From positions 1 through 56,484 of IMG/VR virus record IMGVR_UViG_3300049437_000074: DNA of 56,484 bases; one strand, written 5' to 3'. The notes under the pieces are model-generated. The model was given only the letters and a program-made list of their open reading frames with translations. It searched no databases and had not been told where the DNA came from. Within the stretch, counting starts at the first letter, position 1, and each line of letters opens with the position of its first letter. Position numbers and translations under genes: made by a program. Below are positions 28,907 to 37,157 of the stretch, piece by piece. The DNA comes from a virus. Lineage: Duplodnaviria > Caudoviricetes.

Positions 28907-30448
28907 ATGATAACACAAGCCAACTCGTTTAGAATACCAATGAAAGACAATAGCGTACACTGCGCGGTGAGCAGTTTTCCGTATTGGGGCTTGAGGTCTT
29001 ACGACCTTCCACCGATCATCTTAGGCGGGCGCGACGATTGCCGGCACGTGTGGCAAACGGTTGTCAAACATCGAGAATCGGGCGGGCCTCAGATAGAGCA
29101 GACAAAATCAGGTAAAGCAACAACGTCTATAATTCAGGCGCAACGGGATACCGAAAGCCAAATCTGTTCTACCTGCGGCGCGTTCTATGGCTCCTTCGGC
29201 CTTGAGCCTACAATGTCGCTCCACGTTGCCAACGCCGTTATTGTCAGCCGGGAAATCAAGCGAGTGCTGCACCCAACGGGTACATTCTGGCTGAATTATG
29301 GTGACAGCTTCGCAACCGCCCGCAACGGGCGCAGCGCAGCCGATGGCAAGGCAACGGGGAACGATGATAGAACCTTTAGGGATAAGCCATTCAGTACGGC
29401 AGGGGAGTTGCCGGAAAAGAATTTGTGCGGGATTCCCTGGCGGGTGGCTATCGCTCTGCAAGAGGACGGGTGGATACTTCGGGCCGCGCCACCCTGGATA
29501 AAACGCAACGCCATGCCGGAATCGGTACAGGACAGGCCGGGCAATGCGCATGAGTATGTGTTTATGCTGACAAAGGGAAAGAAATATTACTACGATGTTG
29601 AATCTGTGAGACGTGCATCTGTTGTAAAATCTCAAGATGAGGCATTAAAAAGAGCGGGTAATTATGGGGCTGGATATGATAAGTGGGTGGATAGTGGCGG
29701 GTATAGAGGCAACGGTGGATTAGGAGAAAATATAAAATTCAACCCCGCAGGCCGCGCCCTCCGAACCTCCGACTTCTTCTTTGATTGCCTTGACTCCTAC
29801 ATTGCCCACCTGCAATCCATCAGAGACAACGGCGGCATGCTGCTGGACAGCACCGGCATGCCGGAGGCGCTGATTGTCAACCCAACCCCATATAGATTCG
29901 CACACTTCGCAACATTTCCACCGGCCCTTGTTTCTCCGATGATCCAGGCCAGCACCAGTCAGGCCGGGGTTTGCCCAAAGTGTGGCAATCCCTGGCAGCG
30001 GGTCAAAGAACCCACGCCGGAATATGCCGCGCTGCTGGGTAAGGATTGGGCCGATTATGAGCAGGATGCAATAGAGGGCCGGGGTCATTCCGTATCACCC
30101 CAGCGCCCAACCAAGCGCAACGGGGCGAGCGTTACGGCGGCTTATCAAACCACCGGCTGGAAACCGTCTTGCGATTGCATCAAAAAAGCTACGCCAAACT
30201 ACGGGATGCAAGGCGGGGAACTTCTGGAAATAGTCGAGCAAGTAGCTCAGGAATTTGCGCCGATTCCCGCCGTGATTTTGGATCCATTTTGTGGAAGTGG
30301 CACCGTCGGGCAGGTTTGCAATGAGTTGGGCCGCCGATTCATCGGCCTTGACCTAAATCCTGTCTATCTCTCCGAAAATGCTTTACCCAGGAGCGAAGGA
30401 AAAACAAGCCAAAAGTCCCTTGAAACTTTACCAATGTTTGCAGCATAA
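28907..30448 (+). CDS. DNA amino-methyltransferase (N4C/N6A, beta class) with insertions
   Basis: SSFPYWGLRSY, GTFWLNYGDS, HEYVFML, HFATFP, LDPFCGSGT. Confidence 0.9.
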   Translation: MITQANSFRIPMKDNSVHCAVSSFPYWGLRSYDLPPIILGGRDDCRHVWQTVVKHRESGGPQIEQTKSGKATTSIIQAQRDTESQICSTCGAFYGSFGLEPTMSLHVANAVIVSREIKRVLHPTGTFWLNYGDSFATARNGRSAADGKATGNDDRTFRDKPFSTAGELPEKNLCGIPWRVAIALQEDGWILRAAPPWIKRNAMPESVQDRPGNAHEYVFMLTKGKKYYYDVESVRRASVVKSQDEALKRAGNYGAGYDKWVDSGGYRGNGGLGENIKFNPAGRALRTSDFFFDCLDSYIAHLQSIRDNGGMLLDSTGMPEALIVNPTPYRFAHFATFPPALVSPMIQASTSQAGVCPKCGNPWQRVKEPTPEYAALLGKDWADYEQDAIEGRGHSVSPQRPTKRNGASVTAAYQTTGWKPSCDCIKKATPNYGMQGGELLEIVEQVAQEFAPIPAVILDPFCGSGTVGQVCNELGRRFIGLDLNPVYLSENALPRSEGKTSQKSLETLPMFAA

Positions 30449-34084: not shown

Positions 34085-34527
34085 AACAGGTAGAAATCAG
34101 AGCGAAATAGGAGACAACGTTATGGACGAAGCACTAAAGAAAATCGTTGACCTCATTAATAACTATGTTGGCGGCCTTATCAACGTGGCCGAAATGCCGG
34201 ACGCCGATAAAGCCGAACTCAAAGCGCACCTGTTGGCGGCTGAAAATATCCTGCTCAAAAATGGTAACGTCAAGTTGCAGCAGGTCGTTAGCTCTATTGC
34301 CGGTGCGGTATTGAGCCGGTTTTAGGGCGACAAATGACACACGTTACACCCACCACAAGCCCCACCACGCCCCTACACGGCGCACCACCTAAAAAACTAT
34401 GCGGCACCCGGCCCCGCGCCGGAAATCGGCGGCATAGCGGCGGGCTGTGAGGTGATACGGTGGGGGTTTGGAGTGAGGGAAAGCGGGGCGATTGCGGCAG
34501 GATGGGCGCTACGGAAAAAGAGATTTG

Positions 34528-35478
34528 ATGACTAAGGAAACTATTGACATTTGGCCTGATAAGTTCCTAAAACGAGAGCTATTGACCGCTGGTGAGCTTG
34601 CCCAGCGTTTCAATATCCTTAACCCCCGTAGCCACCCCGAATCCCAACGCTCCGCTACTGAGTCCAGCCTTGATACTGTAGGCTGGTTTGATGAGATAAG
34701 TTTATCTATCAACGGCGATGGGCCGGCGTCTCTGCTTGACAACCCCGACGCCGTTATGTTTGATGGTCACGAGCGCGTAGTCCTGGCTTTGGCGCGGGCA
34801 GGTGAAGGTGGGCTTGTGCCGGTCAAGTGGTACGGCTTAACCCCGGCTGAAACGGACTTCGCTCTTTTGGTCAAAGACCAGATAACAGAGATGGCAGAGA
34901 CAAAGTCGACTGAGTTAGCCGCTTTGTTAGAGCGCACTAAAACAATGACGGTTGACCCGCGTCTGGCCGGGATGTTAGAGACACTAAAGCAGCGGGCGGC
35001 TGATGGGTTGTTAAACCAACAAGGGAACGGCGCAAGCGGACAAGGGCAAGCAGATTTTGTTAGCTTATCAGACCGTTTCATAGTTCCCCCTTTTAGCGTA
35101 CTTGATGCCAGACAAGGCTATTGGCAGGAACGCAAGCGGGCGTGGTTGGTGCTGGGGATTCAAAGCGAATTAGGGCGGGGTGAAAACCTGCAAGGGTTAT
35201 CAGAGAGTAACGATACTGATCGTTACTCTAAACAGGAGTATTTATCCCGCAAGCCCAACGCCACGCCCGGCGGGTCGCCGCTGGAAGCGGCGACCCTAAA
35301 GAACGGCAAAACCGTTAGAGGCGACGGACGCGGCAGACCCCTAGACGAAAACCCCGGGGGGGGTAACACGGATGGCAATGCACAACGACCCGATGCAGCG
35401 CAAGCGAAAATACGACGCGGCTACGCCAGAACCTTCGGACAAGATTTGATGAGAGGGGAGCATAAGATTGAAAGATAA
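34528..35478 (+). CDS. ParB-like N-terminal domain fused to the N-terminal part of a DNA methyltransferase
   Basis: NPRSH...GW...DGHER ParB motifs, then SLSDRFIVPPFSVLDARQGYWQERKRAW..LGIQSELGR, followed by low-conservation modules. Confidence 0.75.
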   Translation: MTKETIDIWPDKFLKRELLTAGELAQRFNILNPRSHPESQRSATESSLDTVGWFDEISLSINGDGPASLLDNPDAVMFDGHERVVLALARAGEGGLVPVKWYGLTPAETDFALLVKDQITEMAETKSTELAALLERTKTMTVDPRLAGMLETLKQRAADGLLNQQGNGASGQGQADFVSLSDRFIVPPFSVLDARQGYWQERKRAWLVLGIQSELGRGENLQGLSESNDTDRYSKQEYLSRKPNATPGGSPLEAATLKNGKTVRGDGRGRPLDENPGGGNTDGNAQRPDAAQAKIRRGYARTFGQDLMRGEHKIER

Positions 35479-35572
35479 AGCTGTGCCAGGTGGCAGCAGA
35501 TGGCCCGCTTCCAAAATAGGCCAGGATGGCAAATTTGGCCGGGCTGATTTACATATGCGGGGGGGCAAGTGA
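35468..35572 (+). CDS. 34-aa peptide module between the two methyltransferase halves (not in ORF track)
   Basis: TTG start with GGGGAG RBS; KDKAVPGGSRWPASKIGQDGKFGRADLHMRGGK resembles NATPGGSPLEAATLKNGKTVRGDGRG upstream; GTGA overlap with the next ORF. Confidence 0.45.
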   Translation: MKDKAVPGGSRWPASKIGQDGKFGRADLHMRGGK

Positions 35573-36420
35573 GTAGCCCAGCATTTCGACCTAATGAGGA
35601 TTTACCAGAAGAAACCCAACGCAAGTTAGGCGGTTATATGGCAAACGGCGCGGTCATAGACCGCGCCGAGGGTGGGTCAACTGGCACGTCCATTTTTGAC
35701 CCCGTTCTATGTGAGCTTGCCTACCGCTGGTTTTGCCCTCCCGATGGCCTTATTCTTGACCCCTTTGCCGGCGGCTCAGTACGCGGTATTGTCGCCGCCA
35801 TGCTAGGTAGGCGATATATCGGTATAGATTTAAGGCCGGAACAGGTAGAGGCAAACCGGGCGCAGGCGCAGCAGATAACGCCGGATAATTTACCCGTCTG
35901 GATTGTGGGAGATAGCCGCAATTTAAGCGAGCTAATCAGCCAGCCGCTTGACTTTATCTTTTCTTGCCCGCCTTATTATGACTTTGAAGTATATAGCGAC
36001 GATCCGCAGGATTTAAGCACAGTGGCAACTTATCGGGAGTTTATAGAGCTTTACCGGGCTATCATTGCTCAGGCGGTTGGCCTGTTAAAGCCAGACCGCT
36101 TTGCCTGTTTTGTTGTCGGGGATATACGGGATAAAAAGGGCTTTTACTGTAACTTTGTCAGCGACACCACCAATGCGTTTCAAGACGCCGGGGCGATGCT
36201 TTACAATGAGGCTGTGCTGATAACGGCGGTGGGCAGTTTGCCGATTCGCGTGGGTAAACAATTTGAGGCCGGGCGTAAGCTGGGCAAGACCCATCAAAAT
36301 GTACTGGTATTCTGTAAGGGCGACCCCCGCAAAGCTACCGAGGCTATAGGGCCGGTTGAGGTATGGCTTCCTGAGACAGAGGCAGAATCGGGCGAGTATG
36401 GCGAGGAGTTGGTATTGTGA
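35569..36420 (+). CDS. DNA amino-methyltransferase catalytic part
   Basis: GTSIFDPVLCELAYRWF, LDPFAGGSVRG (SAM binding), FSCPPY (catalytic variant), KTHQNVLVF. Confidence 0.88.
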   Translation: MSSPAFRPNEDLPEETQRKLGGYMANGAVIDRAEGGSTGTSIFDPVLCELAYRWFCPPDGLILDPFAGGSVRGIVAAMLGRRYIGIDLRPEQVEANRAQAQQITPDNLPVWIVGDSRNLSELISQPLDFIFSCPPYYDFEVYSDDPQDLSTVATYREFIELYRAIIAQAVGLLKPDRFACFVVGDIRDKKGFYCNFVSDTTNAFQDAGAMLYNEAVLITAVGSLPIRVGKQFEAGRKLGKTHQNVLVFCKGDPRKATEAIGPVEVWLPETEAESGEYGEELVL

Positions 36421-37157
36421 ATTTACCCGCGCCGATTGTTGAAGATCATAATGGTATAGCCGTTGTCAGGGATGACCTTATACCCGGAGGCACAAAAGCC
36501 CGTTACTTGATAGAGTTATTTAGCCGGTATGATGAGATTGTTTATGCTACCCCCGCTTACGGCGGCGCTCAATTAGCCCTTGCCTATTGCGCCAGAGTAA
36601 CCGGCAAAAAGGCGACTCTATTTGTAGCTAAACGCAAACAGCCCCACGCCAGAACCTTAGAGGCTCACAAGGTAGGGGCGCGGGTATTTCAAGTGCCTAA
36701 CGGCTATCTATCAAATGTCCAGAGCAAAGCCAAAAAGTACTGTCAGGACAAGGGGGCTTTTTACTTGGAGTTTGGCGGGGAGAGCGAGCAGGCGTTAGAT
36801 TTAATAGCCGAGGCCGGTGCTTATGTTTGGGGTACTTACGGCCCGTTTGAGCAGGTATGGACAGCGGCAGGCAGCGGCGTATTAACGAGGGGATTACAGC
36901 GGGGTATACCGGGTGATTTTGTAGCCGTTCAAATTGGACGGGATATTGACAAGCCGGGCCGGGCTAAAGTAATAAAACACCCCTTACCTTTTGAGAAGGA
37001 ATCGGGCGCTGTGATTCCGTTTCCGTCCTGCCCTAATTATGACCGTAAGGCGTGGGATATTTGCCAGCGGTCAAGTAAAGGCCGGGTATTGTTTTGGAAT
37101 GTTTTAGGGCAATCGCCCACAATTCACACCCAACCCCCGCGCCTCGTTAGCGGGTGA
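36417..37157 (+). CDS. PLP-dependent enzyme, fold type II (ACC deaminase / D-cysteine desulfhydrase-like)
   Basis: VVRDDLIPGGTKAR (Schiff-base Lys), AAGSG phosphate loop, YDRKAW, LFWNV. Confidence 0.8.
   Translation: MNLPAPIVEDHNGIAVVRDDLIPGGTKARYLIELFSRYDEIVYATPAYGGAQLALAYCARVTGKKATLFVAKRKQPHARTLEAHKVGARVFQVPNGYLSNVQSKAKKYCQDKGAFYLEFGGESEQALDLIAEAGAYVWGTYGPFEQVWTAAGSGVLTRGLQRGIPGDFVAVQIGRDIDKPGRAKVIKHPLPFEKESGAVIPFPSCPNYDRKAWDICQRSSKGRVLFWNVLGQSPTIHTQPPRLVSG

Follow-up and report, generated by a model that had tools for sequence, protein, structure and literature searches.

A probable two-subunit ParB-methyltransferase of environmental phages with a linker of peptide cassettes, poly-G tracts and palindromes

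Results

Adjacent genes carry complementary parts of a predicted ParB-methyltransferase

The window analyzed here is a 56,484-nucleotide stretch of phage DNA (IMG/VR record IMGVR_UViG_3300049437_000074). The locus of interest comprises two open reading frames (ORFs) and a linked third gene:

34492-35478, plus strand: ORF1, putative N subunit, 328 aa (from the ORF listing)
35035-35181, plus strand: conserved N-part segment ending in SELGRG (invariant columns in alignments A1 and A4)
35569-36420, plus strand: ORF2, putative catalytic subunit, 283 aa (PF01555, phrog_12517, phrog_498)
36417-37157, plus strand: linked PLP-type (PALP-like) gene, third module member (PF00291, phrog_7093)

ORF1 is laid out as a putative, divergent ParB-like N-terminal region, a pre-motif-X methyltransferase segment, and a cassette tail. 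No Pfam family matched it at E ≤ 0.01. Among the PHROG profiles, phrog_498, a 633-aa fused ParB-methyltransferase profile, matches ORF1 residues 44-223 (profile positions 49-206, E 2e-10), and phrog_15396 matches residues 157-241. Our family profile A1 also matches the N-domains of Noc, Spo0J, and ParB, with E values from 5e-8 to 1e-5. The segment ending in SELGRG is the last block before the linker that is conserved family-wide. From these matches, the N subunit is predicted to hold a ParB-like domain and a strand-and-loop block that lies ahead of methyltransferase motif X.

ORF2 scores well above the PF01555 cut-off (51.4 bits against 26.7, E 1.8e-13). It carries the SAM-binding motif I (F/P-x-G-x-G type) as DPFAGGS, with columns invariant in A1 and A5. 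At the position of catalytic motif IV, (D/S/N)PP(Y/F/W) in this class, stands the tetrad C-P-P-Y, invariant in 36/36 A1 sequences; its Cys corresponds to the Ser of SPPY in PDB 2zie. The motif order of ORF2, X-I and then IV, is a circular permutation relative to PDB 2zie and differs from the beta-class order IV...X-I. Because motif X-I precedes IV, we filed the locus as a permuted relative of the beta-class methyltransferases. The predicted C subunit comprises motifs X-I-IV-VIII of a circularly permuted beta-class N6/N4 methyltransferase.

The N-part motif, which ends near 35178, and the catalytic motif, which starts at 35683, share one frame, and two stops and two frame changes separate them, placing the two parts on different polypeptides in the window. 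TAA at 35476-35478 terminates ORF1, and the same frame is closed again by TGA at 35545-35547. The complementary parts of the fold thus sit on separate adjacent ORFs and are conserved as such, as in a split methyltransferase, and every invariant residue of the family is kept in both halves of the window enzyme. We found no close relative of the window itself among the related loci, and no Rfam family matched positions 34900-35900 at E ≤ 1.

The PLP-type gene matches PF00291 slightly under that family's cut-off (E 2e-8), and has a homologue in 50 of 82 loci. In eight loci the gene order is N - PALP - C (L006, L011, L024, L030, L057, L063, L064, L068). Sequence comparison found no solved relative of the encoded protein, and its sole NCBIfam matches lie far under their cut-offs.

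Peptide cassettes between the two parts recur in related loci

The hypervariable linker between the conserved parts contains the following cassettes and tracts:

35254-35340, plus strand: cassette B (PGGS...RGDGRGR type), in the ORF1 frame; found in 36/162 other loci
35356-35363, plus strand: G8 tract, first frame switch (run search, frame reading)
35372-35449, plus strand: cassette P, a 25-aa micro-ORF in the +1 frame; found in 6/162 other loci (7 with the window)
35425-35463, plus strand: cassette C (ARTFGQDLMRGEH), here at the end of ORF1; found in 65/162 other loci
35468-35572, plus strand: 34-aa ORF in the +1 frame, a second, divergent B-type cassette (from the ORF listing)
35559-35577, plus strand: G7 tract (35559-35565) with a conserved junction element (run search, frame reading)

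A first-pass annotation of this DNA had described the zone as a methyltransferase gene interrupted by short peptide modules in alternating frames, and had located its stops, frames, +1 peptides, three hairpins, and G8 and G7 runs correctly. Modules in alternating frames are likewise seen in many relatives. The annotation had also raised the prospect that modules recur in shuffled form, with random decay as the reading if homologues showed no recurrence. Comparison with 162 other loci by tblastn found recurrence, with mosaics visible, for cassettes B, C, and P; it did not extend to two of the six modules, the first, since the cassette around hairpin 1 was found in 0/162 other loci, and most of the last, for which matches were absent or nearly so. 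The second B-type cassette shows weak similarity to B cassettes, in two loci.

In most split relatives, cassette B forms the C-terminal tail of the N gene. Cassette C is more varied in its context: across 58 loci it lies at the head of the catalytic gene in 27, in a micro-ORF in 19, in the N tail in seven, and in a fused ORF in five. The 19 stand-alone micro-ORFs fit an earlier suggestion that peptides are supplied in trans. Cassettes B and C, the two commonest, are nearly invariant across the family.

Cassette P opens with two ATG codons and overlaps the tail of ORF1. Across the seven loci that carry it, codon differences in the P frame are 80 synonymous to 67 non-synonymous, while the same DNA gives 4/153 in the frame +1 to P and 4/149 in that of ORF1. 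Cassette P, which is out of the ORF1 frame, is therefore under selection in its own frame. More generally, the peptide sequence of the cassettes is kept in whatever frame they occupy, with substitutions biased toward synonymous changes, and ORFs stay open through linkers of 381 and 513 nt. The open long linkers and the codon pattern of cassette P together argue that the cassettes are translated.

Starting from a TTG, the 34-aa ORF shares its first 11 nt with the end of ORF1; in an alignment with L015, this TTG (35468) and the purine-rich stretch upstream of it fall where the L015 catalytic ORF starts. By this homology, the catalytic gene probably includes the 34-aa ORF as its 5' part and may begin at TTG 35468 instead of at the ORF2 start. 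The cassettes are rich in Gly, Arg, and Ala, basic, and poor in hydrophobic residues, which make up 18.2% of linkers versus 35.3% of the catalytic core; judged by composition, the cassette zone is predicted to be disordered.

Separate genes are the norm for long linkers

We took a census of 111 non-duplicate related linkers. Every linker under 200 nt lies in one continuous ORF (42/42), 49 of the 59 linkers of 200-700 nt are split, and so are all ten of those over 700 nt; among loci with both motifs, 45/60 are split. The two-gene state is the norm for long linkers. The description of the gene as "interrupted" consequently does not suit this family, in which 49/59 relatives with linkers of 200-700 nt have two separate genes, and the statement that the halves are usually one polypeptide applies to short-linker relatives and fails for long-linker ones. 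Fused proteins are typical only of short-linker relatives, among which most cultured phages fall, and the linkers of intact single-ORF relatives are as short as 48-69 nt.

Split forms also occur in cultured-isolate genomes of Sinorhizobium, Rhodopseudomonas, Aminobacter, and Hyphomicrobium, and in an isolated phage, Microcystis phage Mae-JY30, whose annotation gives two CDS for the locus. On the core tree we count at least 16-17 switches of the split state, of which well-supported branches force 4-6. In 59 non-duplicate loci the breaks fall only within the linker, and the end of one ORF overlaps the start of the next, as is seen in coupled genes. The layout is common to many related phages and apparently new to the literature: the mostly open-access literature searched contained no description of a split ParB-methyltransferase or of its cassette linker, hairpins, or poly-G tracts, which does not prove absence from print.

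Poly-G tracts lie at frame junctions and differ in length between close relatives

The window holds only eight G-runs of at least 7, two of them in the linker, and both of these (G8 and G7) are short by the standards of the family. As assembled, the G8 tract passes ORF1 into a bridging frame and then cassette C. One additional G would bring TAA 35364-35366 into frame, and one fewer would fuse cassette P to ORF1; L009 shows the stop-after-tract layout and L015 the P-fused layout. At the G7 tract as assembled, the 34-aa ORF ends at TGA 35570-35572, overlapping GTG 35569. With one extra G the 34-aa ORF would run on into the catalytic ORF, a point already made in the first-pass annotation and borne out by the frames, and the third frame ends at TAG. 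The element of the window G7 (tract, then CAAG(G)TGAGTA) also lies 3' of cassette C in L034, L069, L070, L072, and L163. Both G8 at 35356 and G7 at 35559 are simple sequence repeats inside a reading frame, as found in contingency loci. The first frame junction of the window, at 35452-35477, contains no homopolymer run.

A Logan re-assembly of the sole run with this DNA, probably its source, is identical to the window over 34510-36500, with 0 differences and 0 gaps; this comparison concerns the contig consensus of one run, a level at which minority tract lengths are invisible.

Across the family, the linkers (25.9 kb) contain runs of at least 7 as 49 G, 4 A, and 1 C on the coding strand, versus 7 G, 12 C, 23 T, and 37 A in the flanks (490 kb). 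Such runs are present in 27/49 split linkers versus 1/52 continuous ones. L013 and L014 are identical at 495/498 nt, and their sole indel is G9 (fused) versus G7 (stop overlapping ATG). Members of the clade L053/L044/L061/L026 differ in three tracts, a 51-nt cassette, the orientation of one loop, and swapped tails. Tract length thus differs between near-identical genomes in relatives of the window (L013/L014 and the L053 clade), most relatives being metagenome assemblies in which long G-runs can be mis-sized. The placement of G-runs at frame junctions, first remarked on in the window alone, is family-wide, and the lengths vary between near-identical contigs.

Two of the three frames close within 8 codons after 45% of 49 tracts, compared with 13% at 1180 random linker positions, and restart codons overlap the stops that come after tracts. 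Junction contexts, the window G7 element included, recur in divergent loci. Where cassette C is followed by a tract, eight copies are in frame with the catalytic ORF and ten are out of frame. Slippage accounts for only part of the junctions, because 22/49 split linkers have no run of at least 7 and only 17/61 frame changes have a homopolymer of at least 6 in the feasible interval.

Linker hairpins have the properties expected of DNA palindromes

Three perfect hairpins lie in or next to the cassettes:

35204-35229, no strand assigned: perfect hairpin 1, 11-bp stem and 4-nt loop (hairpin search)
35272-35296, no strand assigned: perfect hairpin 2, 11-bp stem and 3-nt loop, inside cassette B (hairpin search)
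35646-35668, no strand assigned: perfect hairpin 3, 10-bp stem and 3-nt loop, at the head of ORF2 (hairpin search)

The 56-kb window contains seven distinct perfect hairpins with stems of at least 9, three of them within one 465-nt stretch, and 20 mononucleotide shuffles of the window gave 0-4 such hairpins. The RNA fold of the linker has z = -3.48 (0/100 shuffles as good), versus z = -0.49 for the adjoining catalytic part. Perfect hairpins reach 1.62 per kb in linkers versus 0.10 per kb in flanks. In total, 101 linkers hold 42 hairpins, while 100 dinucleotide-preserving shuffles gave a mean of 0.81 and a maximum of 5, ruling out composition as the cause.

Hairpin 2 shows two compensatory double changes in L015 and an inverted loop in L046, and L015 has a G8 run where the homologous cassette of the window has hairpin 3. 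Identical or near-identical stems with reverse-complemented loops were found in five independent cases, and the first unpaired position outside the stems is G-T in just 2/43. In the D2 hairpin, 10 of 12 pairs changed on both sides, and its covariation score of 0.331 compares with 0.138 in shuffles that leave sequence relatedness in place (0/500 reach it). RNA-level selection was rejected as the main cause of the hairpins, which have hardly any G-U pairs and whose loops invert to the reverse complement. The three window hairpins are mutually unlike and unrepeated elsewhere in the window, which also ruled out a dispersed mobile palindromic element. The excess over chance, the loop inversions, and the multi-base compensatory changes are those of template-switch palindromes, and we interpret the hairpins as DNA palindromes.

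Discussion

On balance, we think that the window locus encodes a two-subunit DNA-modifying enzyme, not a broken gene, with a tract-switched cassette zone between the subunits. The N and C subunits would assemble, tracts would change length at a high rate within one phage population, and the choice of cassette would alter enzyme behavior. A cassette can extend the N subunit at its C-terminus, head the C subunit at its N-terminus, or form a free micro-ORF, and coding-strand poly-G runs join the cassettes. Slipped-strand mispairing would add or remove one G, with one frame leading into the next cassette and the remaining two mostly reaching a stop a few codons on; translation of the catalytic subunit would be maintained by start codons that overlap such stops (GTGA or ATGA). 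Poly-G reads as glycine in any frame, and therefore gain or loss of one G would alter the downstream sequence only. In the assembled window state, the G8 run gives the N subunit cassette C rather than cassette P, and the G7 run leaves the second B-type cassette in a 34-aa ORF whose translation would be coupled to that of the catalytic ORF. Replication template switching would create the palindromes and keep their stems perfect, in a linker zone that tolerates palindromes.

More tentatively, the linker might act as a phage multi-switch contingency locus, a possibility toward which we do not lean but which we take seriously. Several poly-G tracts, each with stops in two frames and a restart codon behind it, would determine which conserved cassettes are joined to one or the other subunit and which are set free as micro-proteins, palindromes would mint new cassettes, and the action of the enzyme and the PLP-type protein, or their visibility to host defence, would be varied. 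Some tracts would precede two overlapping long coding frames.

If homopolymer errors in sequencing or assembly had faked the frameshifts, the true gene would be one plain ORF: G-runs of 7-13 are error-prone on several platforms, the relatives are mostly metagenome contigs, and an extra G at 35559 lengthens the catalytic ORF upstream. We regard this as improbable, since a second assembler yields the identical sequence from the run holding this DNA, and the window would still need a frame change in the homopolymer-free interval at 35452-35477. Nor would such errors explain the split linkers that lack a run of at least 7 (22/49) or the split forms in isolate genomes and an isolated phage; the N - PALP - C order is impossible as an indel artefact, and stops with overlapping restarts are commoner after tracts than at random linker positions. 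It is very improbable that a once-fused ParB-methyltransferase gene is decaying and owes its stops and frame changes to random damage. Fused single-ORF forms do exist and predominate among cultured phages, and the ParB-like region of the window is too divergent for Pfam, but the invariant residues are intact in both halves, ORF2 is well over its Pfam cut-off, and the restriction of breaks to the linker in 59 non-duplicate loci, the synonymous-biased retention of cassette peptides in any frame, and the coupled-gene style of ORF ends overlapping the next start all run against decay.

Two further readings concern what the tracts and cassettes do. The poly-G runs might act at the level of RNA or the ribosome, by transcriptional slippage or programmed frameshifting, giving a mixture of products without heritable tract change. 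Polymerase slippage can occur at long homopolymers, all three post-tract frames have a defined outcome, and stable hairpins, as candidate stimulators, abound in the linker. Against this, heritable length differences are seen between near-identical contigs, the window hairpins lie about 80 nt or more from the tracts, and the near absence of G-U pairing marks the hairpins as acting as DNA palindromes. A programmed -1 frameshift between cassettes P and C was rejected, as the codons in between vary and share no common slippery heptamer, and we found no evidence for the ribosomal bypassing suggested earlier, there being no conserved slippery site in this interval. We consider the RNA-level account unlikely; it and heritable switching could coexist. 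It is similarly doubtful that the cassettes are alternative target-recognition segments, as the first-pass annotation had proposed, with switching changing the methylated DNA motif. Judging from our permutation mapping and from known structures, the linker takes the place of a loop that joins the conserved tryptophan block to motif X and that is near DNA in beta-class enzymes; the cassettes are basic and glycine-rich, and tract length selects alternative tails. However, linkers of 48-69 nt suffice in intact relatives (48-57 nt in the short-linker cases set against the earlier proposal), the Gly/Arg/Ala-rich composition points to disorder and not to a folded recognition domain, and cassettes B and C are nearly invariant family-wide instead of being diversified.

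The two-subunit enzyme with a tract-switched linker that we favor shares features with several known systems. Like phrog_498-type fusions, it has a putative ParB/Srx-type N-terminal region followed by a PF01555 methyltransferase, and the gene adjoins terminase genes. It differs from them in being split over two or three ORFs, in its cassette linker of ~500 nt (~50-150 nt in the fusions), and in its CPPY motif IV and linked PLP-type gene. One such ParB-methyltransferase fusion, Bacillus cereus Bce_0392, is reported to nick DNA non-specifically, and the accessible portions of the papers on these fusions make no mention of a split, cassettes, hairpins, or homopolymers (PMC3592412, PMC5512222, PMC12704722).

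With phase-variable methyltransferases and other contingency loci, the window locus has in common coding homopolymers that differ in length in close relatives and shift the frame. Here, in contrast, one linker carries several tracts, and at some of them the alternatives are two long coding frames. The stops are overlapped by restart codons, which keeps the catalytic part from being simply turned off. The setting also differs, being environmental phages and prophages. Judging from its accessible text, a 2025 preprint on T2/T4 and a coliphage collection is the first formal report of phage contingency loci, and the only methylase mentioned there is that of Bordetella phage BPP-1, with a poly-G run (bioRxiv 10.1101/2025.10.21.683753). 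This methylase, Bpm, resembles the window enzyme in having a coding-strand G8 in a beta-class phage methyltransferase, shortly 5' of motif I. Bpm differs as a 250-aa stand-alone protein with classic motif order and without a ParB part or cassette linker, and the similarity is limited to the motif I region (43% identity over 42 residues). The original paper on the Bpm poly-G run is reportedly that of Liu et al. from 2004.

Two-subunit methyltransferases such as M.AquI are C5-cytosine enzymes of restriction-modification systems. As in our locus, their catalytic fold is divided at a variable region over adjacent or overlapping ORFs; as usually described, the M.AquI type is without cassettes, tracts, or palindromes.

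Rickettsia palindromic elements are an example of coding palindromes. Nematomorpha mitochondrial genes carry coding palindromes as well (PMC6649704), and template switching is described as creating and maintaining hairpins (PMC8794818), in the parts of these papers that were accessible. The window family shares with coding palindromes perfect inverted repeats in translated sequence, with arms that co-change and loops that invert. Compared with the Nematomorpha and Rickettsia cases, the stems here are short (9-18 bp), are confined mostly to one linker of one gene family, and are combined with poly-G switches; they form no dispersed repeat family.

ParB-methyltransferases are among the commonest DNA-modifying proteins of phages and prophages. 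Our analysis suggests that a large environmental branch of them is built as a two-subunit enzyme with a linked PLP-type gene, a build that hints at more than simple methylation. Gene callers will mislabel such loci as pseudogenes or unrelated "ParB" fragments. The linker would be a natural case of frame-switching coding, combining homopolymer switches, overlapping frames, selected micro-ORFs, and translational restarts, and the family would provide dozens of natural switch states to study. It would also be a dense natural record of template switching in translated DNA, informative on the origin of new peptide sequence. If the linker does act as a multi-switch contingency locus, one phage lineage would keep yielding enzyme variants with different tails.

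Anatomy of the split locus

The window is a linear viral contig of 56,484 bp with an estimated completeness of 78%, and terminase genes (small, 37171; large, 38170) lie directly downstream of its split methyltransferase locus. The ORFs, stops, hairpins and G-runs that the first-pass annotation had named were all found in place.

Features of the split methyltransferase locus
34492-35478, plus strand: ORF1, the N subunit gene, 328 aa, stop TAA 35476
TGA 35545, plus strand: second in-frame stop after ORF1, in the ORF1 frame
GTG 35569-36420, plus strand: ORF2, the catalytic (C) subunit gene, 283 aa, reopening the ORF1 frame
From ATG 35372, plus strand: 25-aa ORF in the +1 frame
From TTG 35468, plus strand: 34-aa ORF in the +1 frame, its TGA overlapping the ORF2 GTG
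Starts 35204, 35272 and 35646, no strand: perfect hairpins (hairpin scan of the window)
G8 35356 and G7 35559, plus strand: G-runs (homopolymer scan)

Between the conserved N-part motif and the catalytic motif lies a linker, whose hairpins, G-runs and RNA fold exceed chance expectation. Three of the window's seven distinct perfect hairpins (stem at least 9) fall within 465 nt of this zone, and shuffled windows had 0-4 in total; it also holds two of the eight G-runs of at least 7, and its RNA folding z is -3.48, against -0.49 in the adjoining catalytic region. Re-assembly of the sole run with window DNA was identical to the window over 34510-36500; this is probably the source run and is stored as contigs, so the identity applies to the consensus sequence and does not bear on minority variants.

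ORF2 encodes a methyltransferase of family PF01555 (51.4 bits; cut-off 26.7). A Pfam search with ORF1, whose sequence is too divergent, gave no match, and the N-terminus of a profile built from 36 full-length relatives matches the ParB N-domains of Noc and Spo0J. That profile matches PDB 2zie in two pieces with their order swapped, so the ParB-methyltransferase family is a circular permutation of the classic beta-class arrangement, motifs X-I standing ahead of IV. Motif IV of ORF2 (35962-35973) is CPPY (Cys-Pro-Pro-Tyr), invariant in all 36 relatives; the first residue of their catalytic tetrad is Cys, where Asp or Ser is usual. On the fused 633-aa PHROG profile phrog_498, ORF1 aligns to positions 49-206 and ORF2 to 355-614. 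Judged by its description in PMC3592412 and PMC5512222, the closest characterised relative is a B. cereus ParB-methylase with nicking activity. The contig also encodes a second PF01555 methyltransferase (28907-30448; 513 aa).

The split is common and the halves are separable

We compared 163 loci: 80 viral (of 589 confirmed relatives), 80 from genomes or MAGs (of 89), the window, and the loci L001 and L002, both from named phages. Both flanking motifs were present in 120 of the 163, giving 111 non-duplicate linkers. Among these, all 42 linkers below 200 nt are continuous, 49 of the 59 at 200-700 nt are split and 10 continuous, and all 10 above 700 nt are split. Within the viral set, 45 of the 60 loci with both motifs are split and 15 form one ORF. 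Microcystis phage Mae-JY30, the nearest isolated phage, has two annotated CDS at the same place, and cultured isolates of Sinorhizobium, Rhodopseudomonas, Aminobacter and Hyphomicrobium likewise carry split forms. Split and continuous states interchange at least 16-17 times on a tree built from 105 distinct core sequences, and branches with good support force 4-6 of these changes. These comparisons indicate that the split is the normal state of long-linker loci in the family. The first-pass annotation had described the halves as usually one polypeptide in related phage proteins; most cultured phages do have short, fused linkers, which explains that description.

The short PLP-type (PALP-like) gene adjoining ORF2 (36417-37157) is tightly linked to the split methyltransferase, with a homologue in 50 of 82 loci. 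Its position varies: it follows the C gene, separates the N gene from the C gene (L006, L011, L024, L030, L057, L063, L064 and L068) or, in Pseudanabaena phage Pam4 (L002), is fused inside the methyltransferase. Because this gene intervenes between the halves or is inserted within the enzyme, gene order indicates that the N and C halves must work in trans. Sequence search found no solved relative of the PLP-type protein, and its family matches were all sub-threshold. The three genes together may produce a modification different from simple methylation. In Erythrobacter phages vB_EliS_R6L and ZS04 (H2 and H3), ORF2 matches in two pieces over ~1.4 kb, which suggests an insertion in their methyltransferase comparable to the PLP domain of Pam4.

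The linker is a mosaic of recurring cassettes

In translated linkers, short peptides recur among loci in varying order, bearing out the proposed shuffling of modules. Searching the 162 other loci by tblastn, we found cassette B (35254-35340) in 36, cassette C (35425-35463) in 65 and cassette P (35372-35449, +1 frame) in 6, so modules are indeed shared among homologues. Recurrence does not extend to every module: the second B-type cassette (in 35468-35572) matched weakly in 2 of the 162, the last module matched a single locus, and the first had no match.

In most split loci cassette B is the N-gene tail, and cassette C, with its own ATG, is the catalytic-gene head. Across its 58 carrier loci, cassette C is a catalytic head in 27, a micro-ORF in 19, an N tail in 7 (window included) and part of a fused ORF in 5. 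Linker peptides are Gly/Arg/Ala-rich, with 18.2% hydrophobic residues against 35.3% in the core. Synonymous/non-synonymous codon differences over cassette P in 7 loci number 80/67 in the P frame, 4/153 in the +1 frame relative to P and 4/149 in the ORF1 frame, a pattern that marks the P frame as the one under selection.

Poly-G tracts act as candidate frame switches

Homopolymers of at least 7 in the linkers (25.9 kb) comprise 49 of G, 4 of A and 1 of C, against 7 of G, 12 of C, 23 of T and 37 of A in the flanks (490 kb). Of the 49 split linkers, 27 contain such a run, as does 1 of the 52 continuous ones. Their contexts recur in divergent loci: directly past the N motif, past 'LIPN', within 'NAIP-GG' and past cassette C. 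The element 3' of the window's G7 is the one past cassette C in L034, L069, L070, L072 and L163; after it one frame stays open, another ends at the TGA overlapping the conserved GTG, and the third ends two codons later. Two of three frames stop within 8 codons after 45% of the 49 tracts, against 13% of 1180 random linker positions.

The slippage proposed for the G-runs agrees with differences in tract length among nearly identical contigs. In L013 and L014, 495 of 498 nt are the same and the sole indel is G9 versus G7: with G9, cassette C is fused to the catalytic ORF, and with G7 it ends at a TGA overlapping the next ATG. Four loci with nearly identical flanks (L053/L044/L061/L026) have 9/9/9/11 in tract 1 and 8/8/7/7 in tract 2. 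They also differ in the presence of a 51-nt cassette with a third tract (8 or 7), in one flipped hairpin loop and in swapped downstream cassettes. Two frames are open past tract 1, one being cassette B and the other a cassette found in frame in other loci; tract 1 length picks the frame. A tract of at least 7 follows 18 distinct copies of cassette C, of which 8 share the frame of the catalytic ORF and 10 do not. These patterns suggest that poly-G tracts are family-wide frame switches. A homopolymer of at least 6 lies in the feasible interval at only 17 of 61 frame changes, and many frame junctions are ordinary overlapping gene ends, not tracts.

At junctions occupied elsewhere by poly-G we also observed other slippage-prone repeats, either dinucleotide runs of the (AG)n or (GA)n type or tandem 12-nt units encoding repeated Gln-Ala-Gly-Arg, as in L015 (~130-150), L008 (just ahead of the N-gene stop) and the linkers of L055, L042 and L005. 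Elsewhere in the window, G8 460-467 and G9 878-886 are both in frame in ORF 2-1819, whose product is a tail protein made of beta-propeller repeats with a Dit-like domain at the C-terminus; this gene of the host-recognition apparatus may be a second one prone to slippage.

Comparison with L015, the window's nearest linker relative, gives the window's G8 three readable outcomes. The L015 N gene holds core, B and P in one frame, ending at the double stop shared with the window's 25-aa ORF; an (AG) repeat occupies the position of G8, and its catalytic ORF starts at a TTG aligned with TTG 35468. In the assembled state, ORF1 passes through cassette P in a bridging frame and has cassette C at its end. 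One more G would bring TAA 35364 into frame, as in locus L009, and one fewer would fuse cassette P, as in L015. At the G7 length the 34-aa ORF stays separate from the catalytic ORF, yet ends on the latter's start codon.

Linker hairpins behave as DNA palindromes

Excluding linkers above 700 nt (e.g. L013), we counted 42 perfect hairpins (stem at least 9) in 25.9 kb of linker versus 49 in 490 kb of flank; in dinucleotide-preserving shuffles of 101 linkers the mean was 0.81 and the highest count 5. Seven lie in a continuous 513-nt linker ORF of L040. Many cassettes coincide with a palindrome, and the B and C peptides are kept with or without one. In five independent pairs of relatives, among them window hairpin 2 and L046, the stem is the same or nearly so and the loop is reverse-complemented. 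Between the window and L015, hairpin 2 differs by two double changes; all 11 pairs remain, and the peptide is altered. Among 16 copies of one cassette, both sides changed in 10 of 12 pairs; the covariation score is 0.331 versus 0.138 in shuffles, which retain the kinship of the copies (0 of 500 reach it), and at most 0.124 in slid controls. The first unpaired position is G-T in only 2 of 43 cases. Together these features point to palindromes of the DNA. Loop inversion with change in both arms is the template-switch mutation signature described in PMC8794818, and the nearest parallel for translated palindromes is in Nematomorpha mitochondria (PMC6649704). The L013 catalytic-gene head (~2390-2480), aligned with L014, has two more long perfect palindromes, with stems of ~18 and ~13 bp.

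A proposed contingency locus in a split methyltransferase

Homopolymer phase variation is well known in bacterial methyltransferases. Among phages, a poly-G run in the BPP-1 methylase is cited in a preprint on phage contingency loci (bioRxiv 10.1101/2025.10.21.683753), and we confirmed a G8 run in the bpm sequence. Bpm differs in being a small, classic-order methyltransferase, its likeness to ORF2 limited to the surroundings of motif I. In the literature searched, whose coverage was incomplete, we found no description of the split, cassettes, multiple switches or palindromes in ParB-methyltransferases, nor of their combination.

The earlier interpretation, a library of alternative recognition segments, stands in part: recurrence, shuffling and slippage are supported by the tblastn matches and by tract-length differences between near-identical contigs, and the role in target recognition stays hypothetical. 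On our best reading the locus encodes a two-subunit enzyme, and its tails would be re-dealt through slipped-strand changes at poly-G runs, with restart codons maintaining expression of the catalytic subunit and template switching supplying new palindromic cassette sequence. The data show the anatomy with its recurrence, the polymorphism between relatives and the frame of selection; the subunits would assemble from separate chains, switching would take place within one population, and the tails would affect activity or specificity. The locus would combine the features of a contingency locus with those of a split methyltransferase, and add coding palindromes to both.
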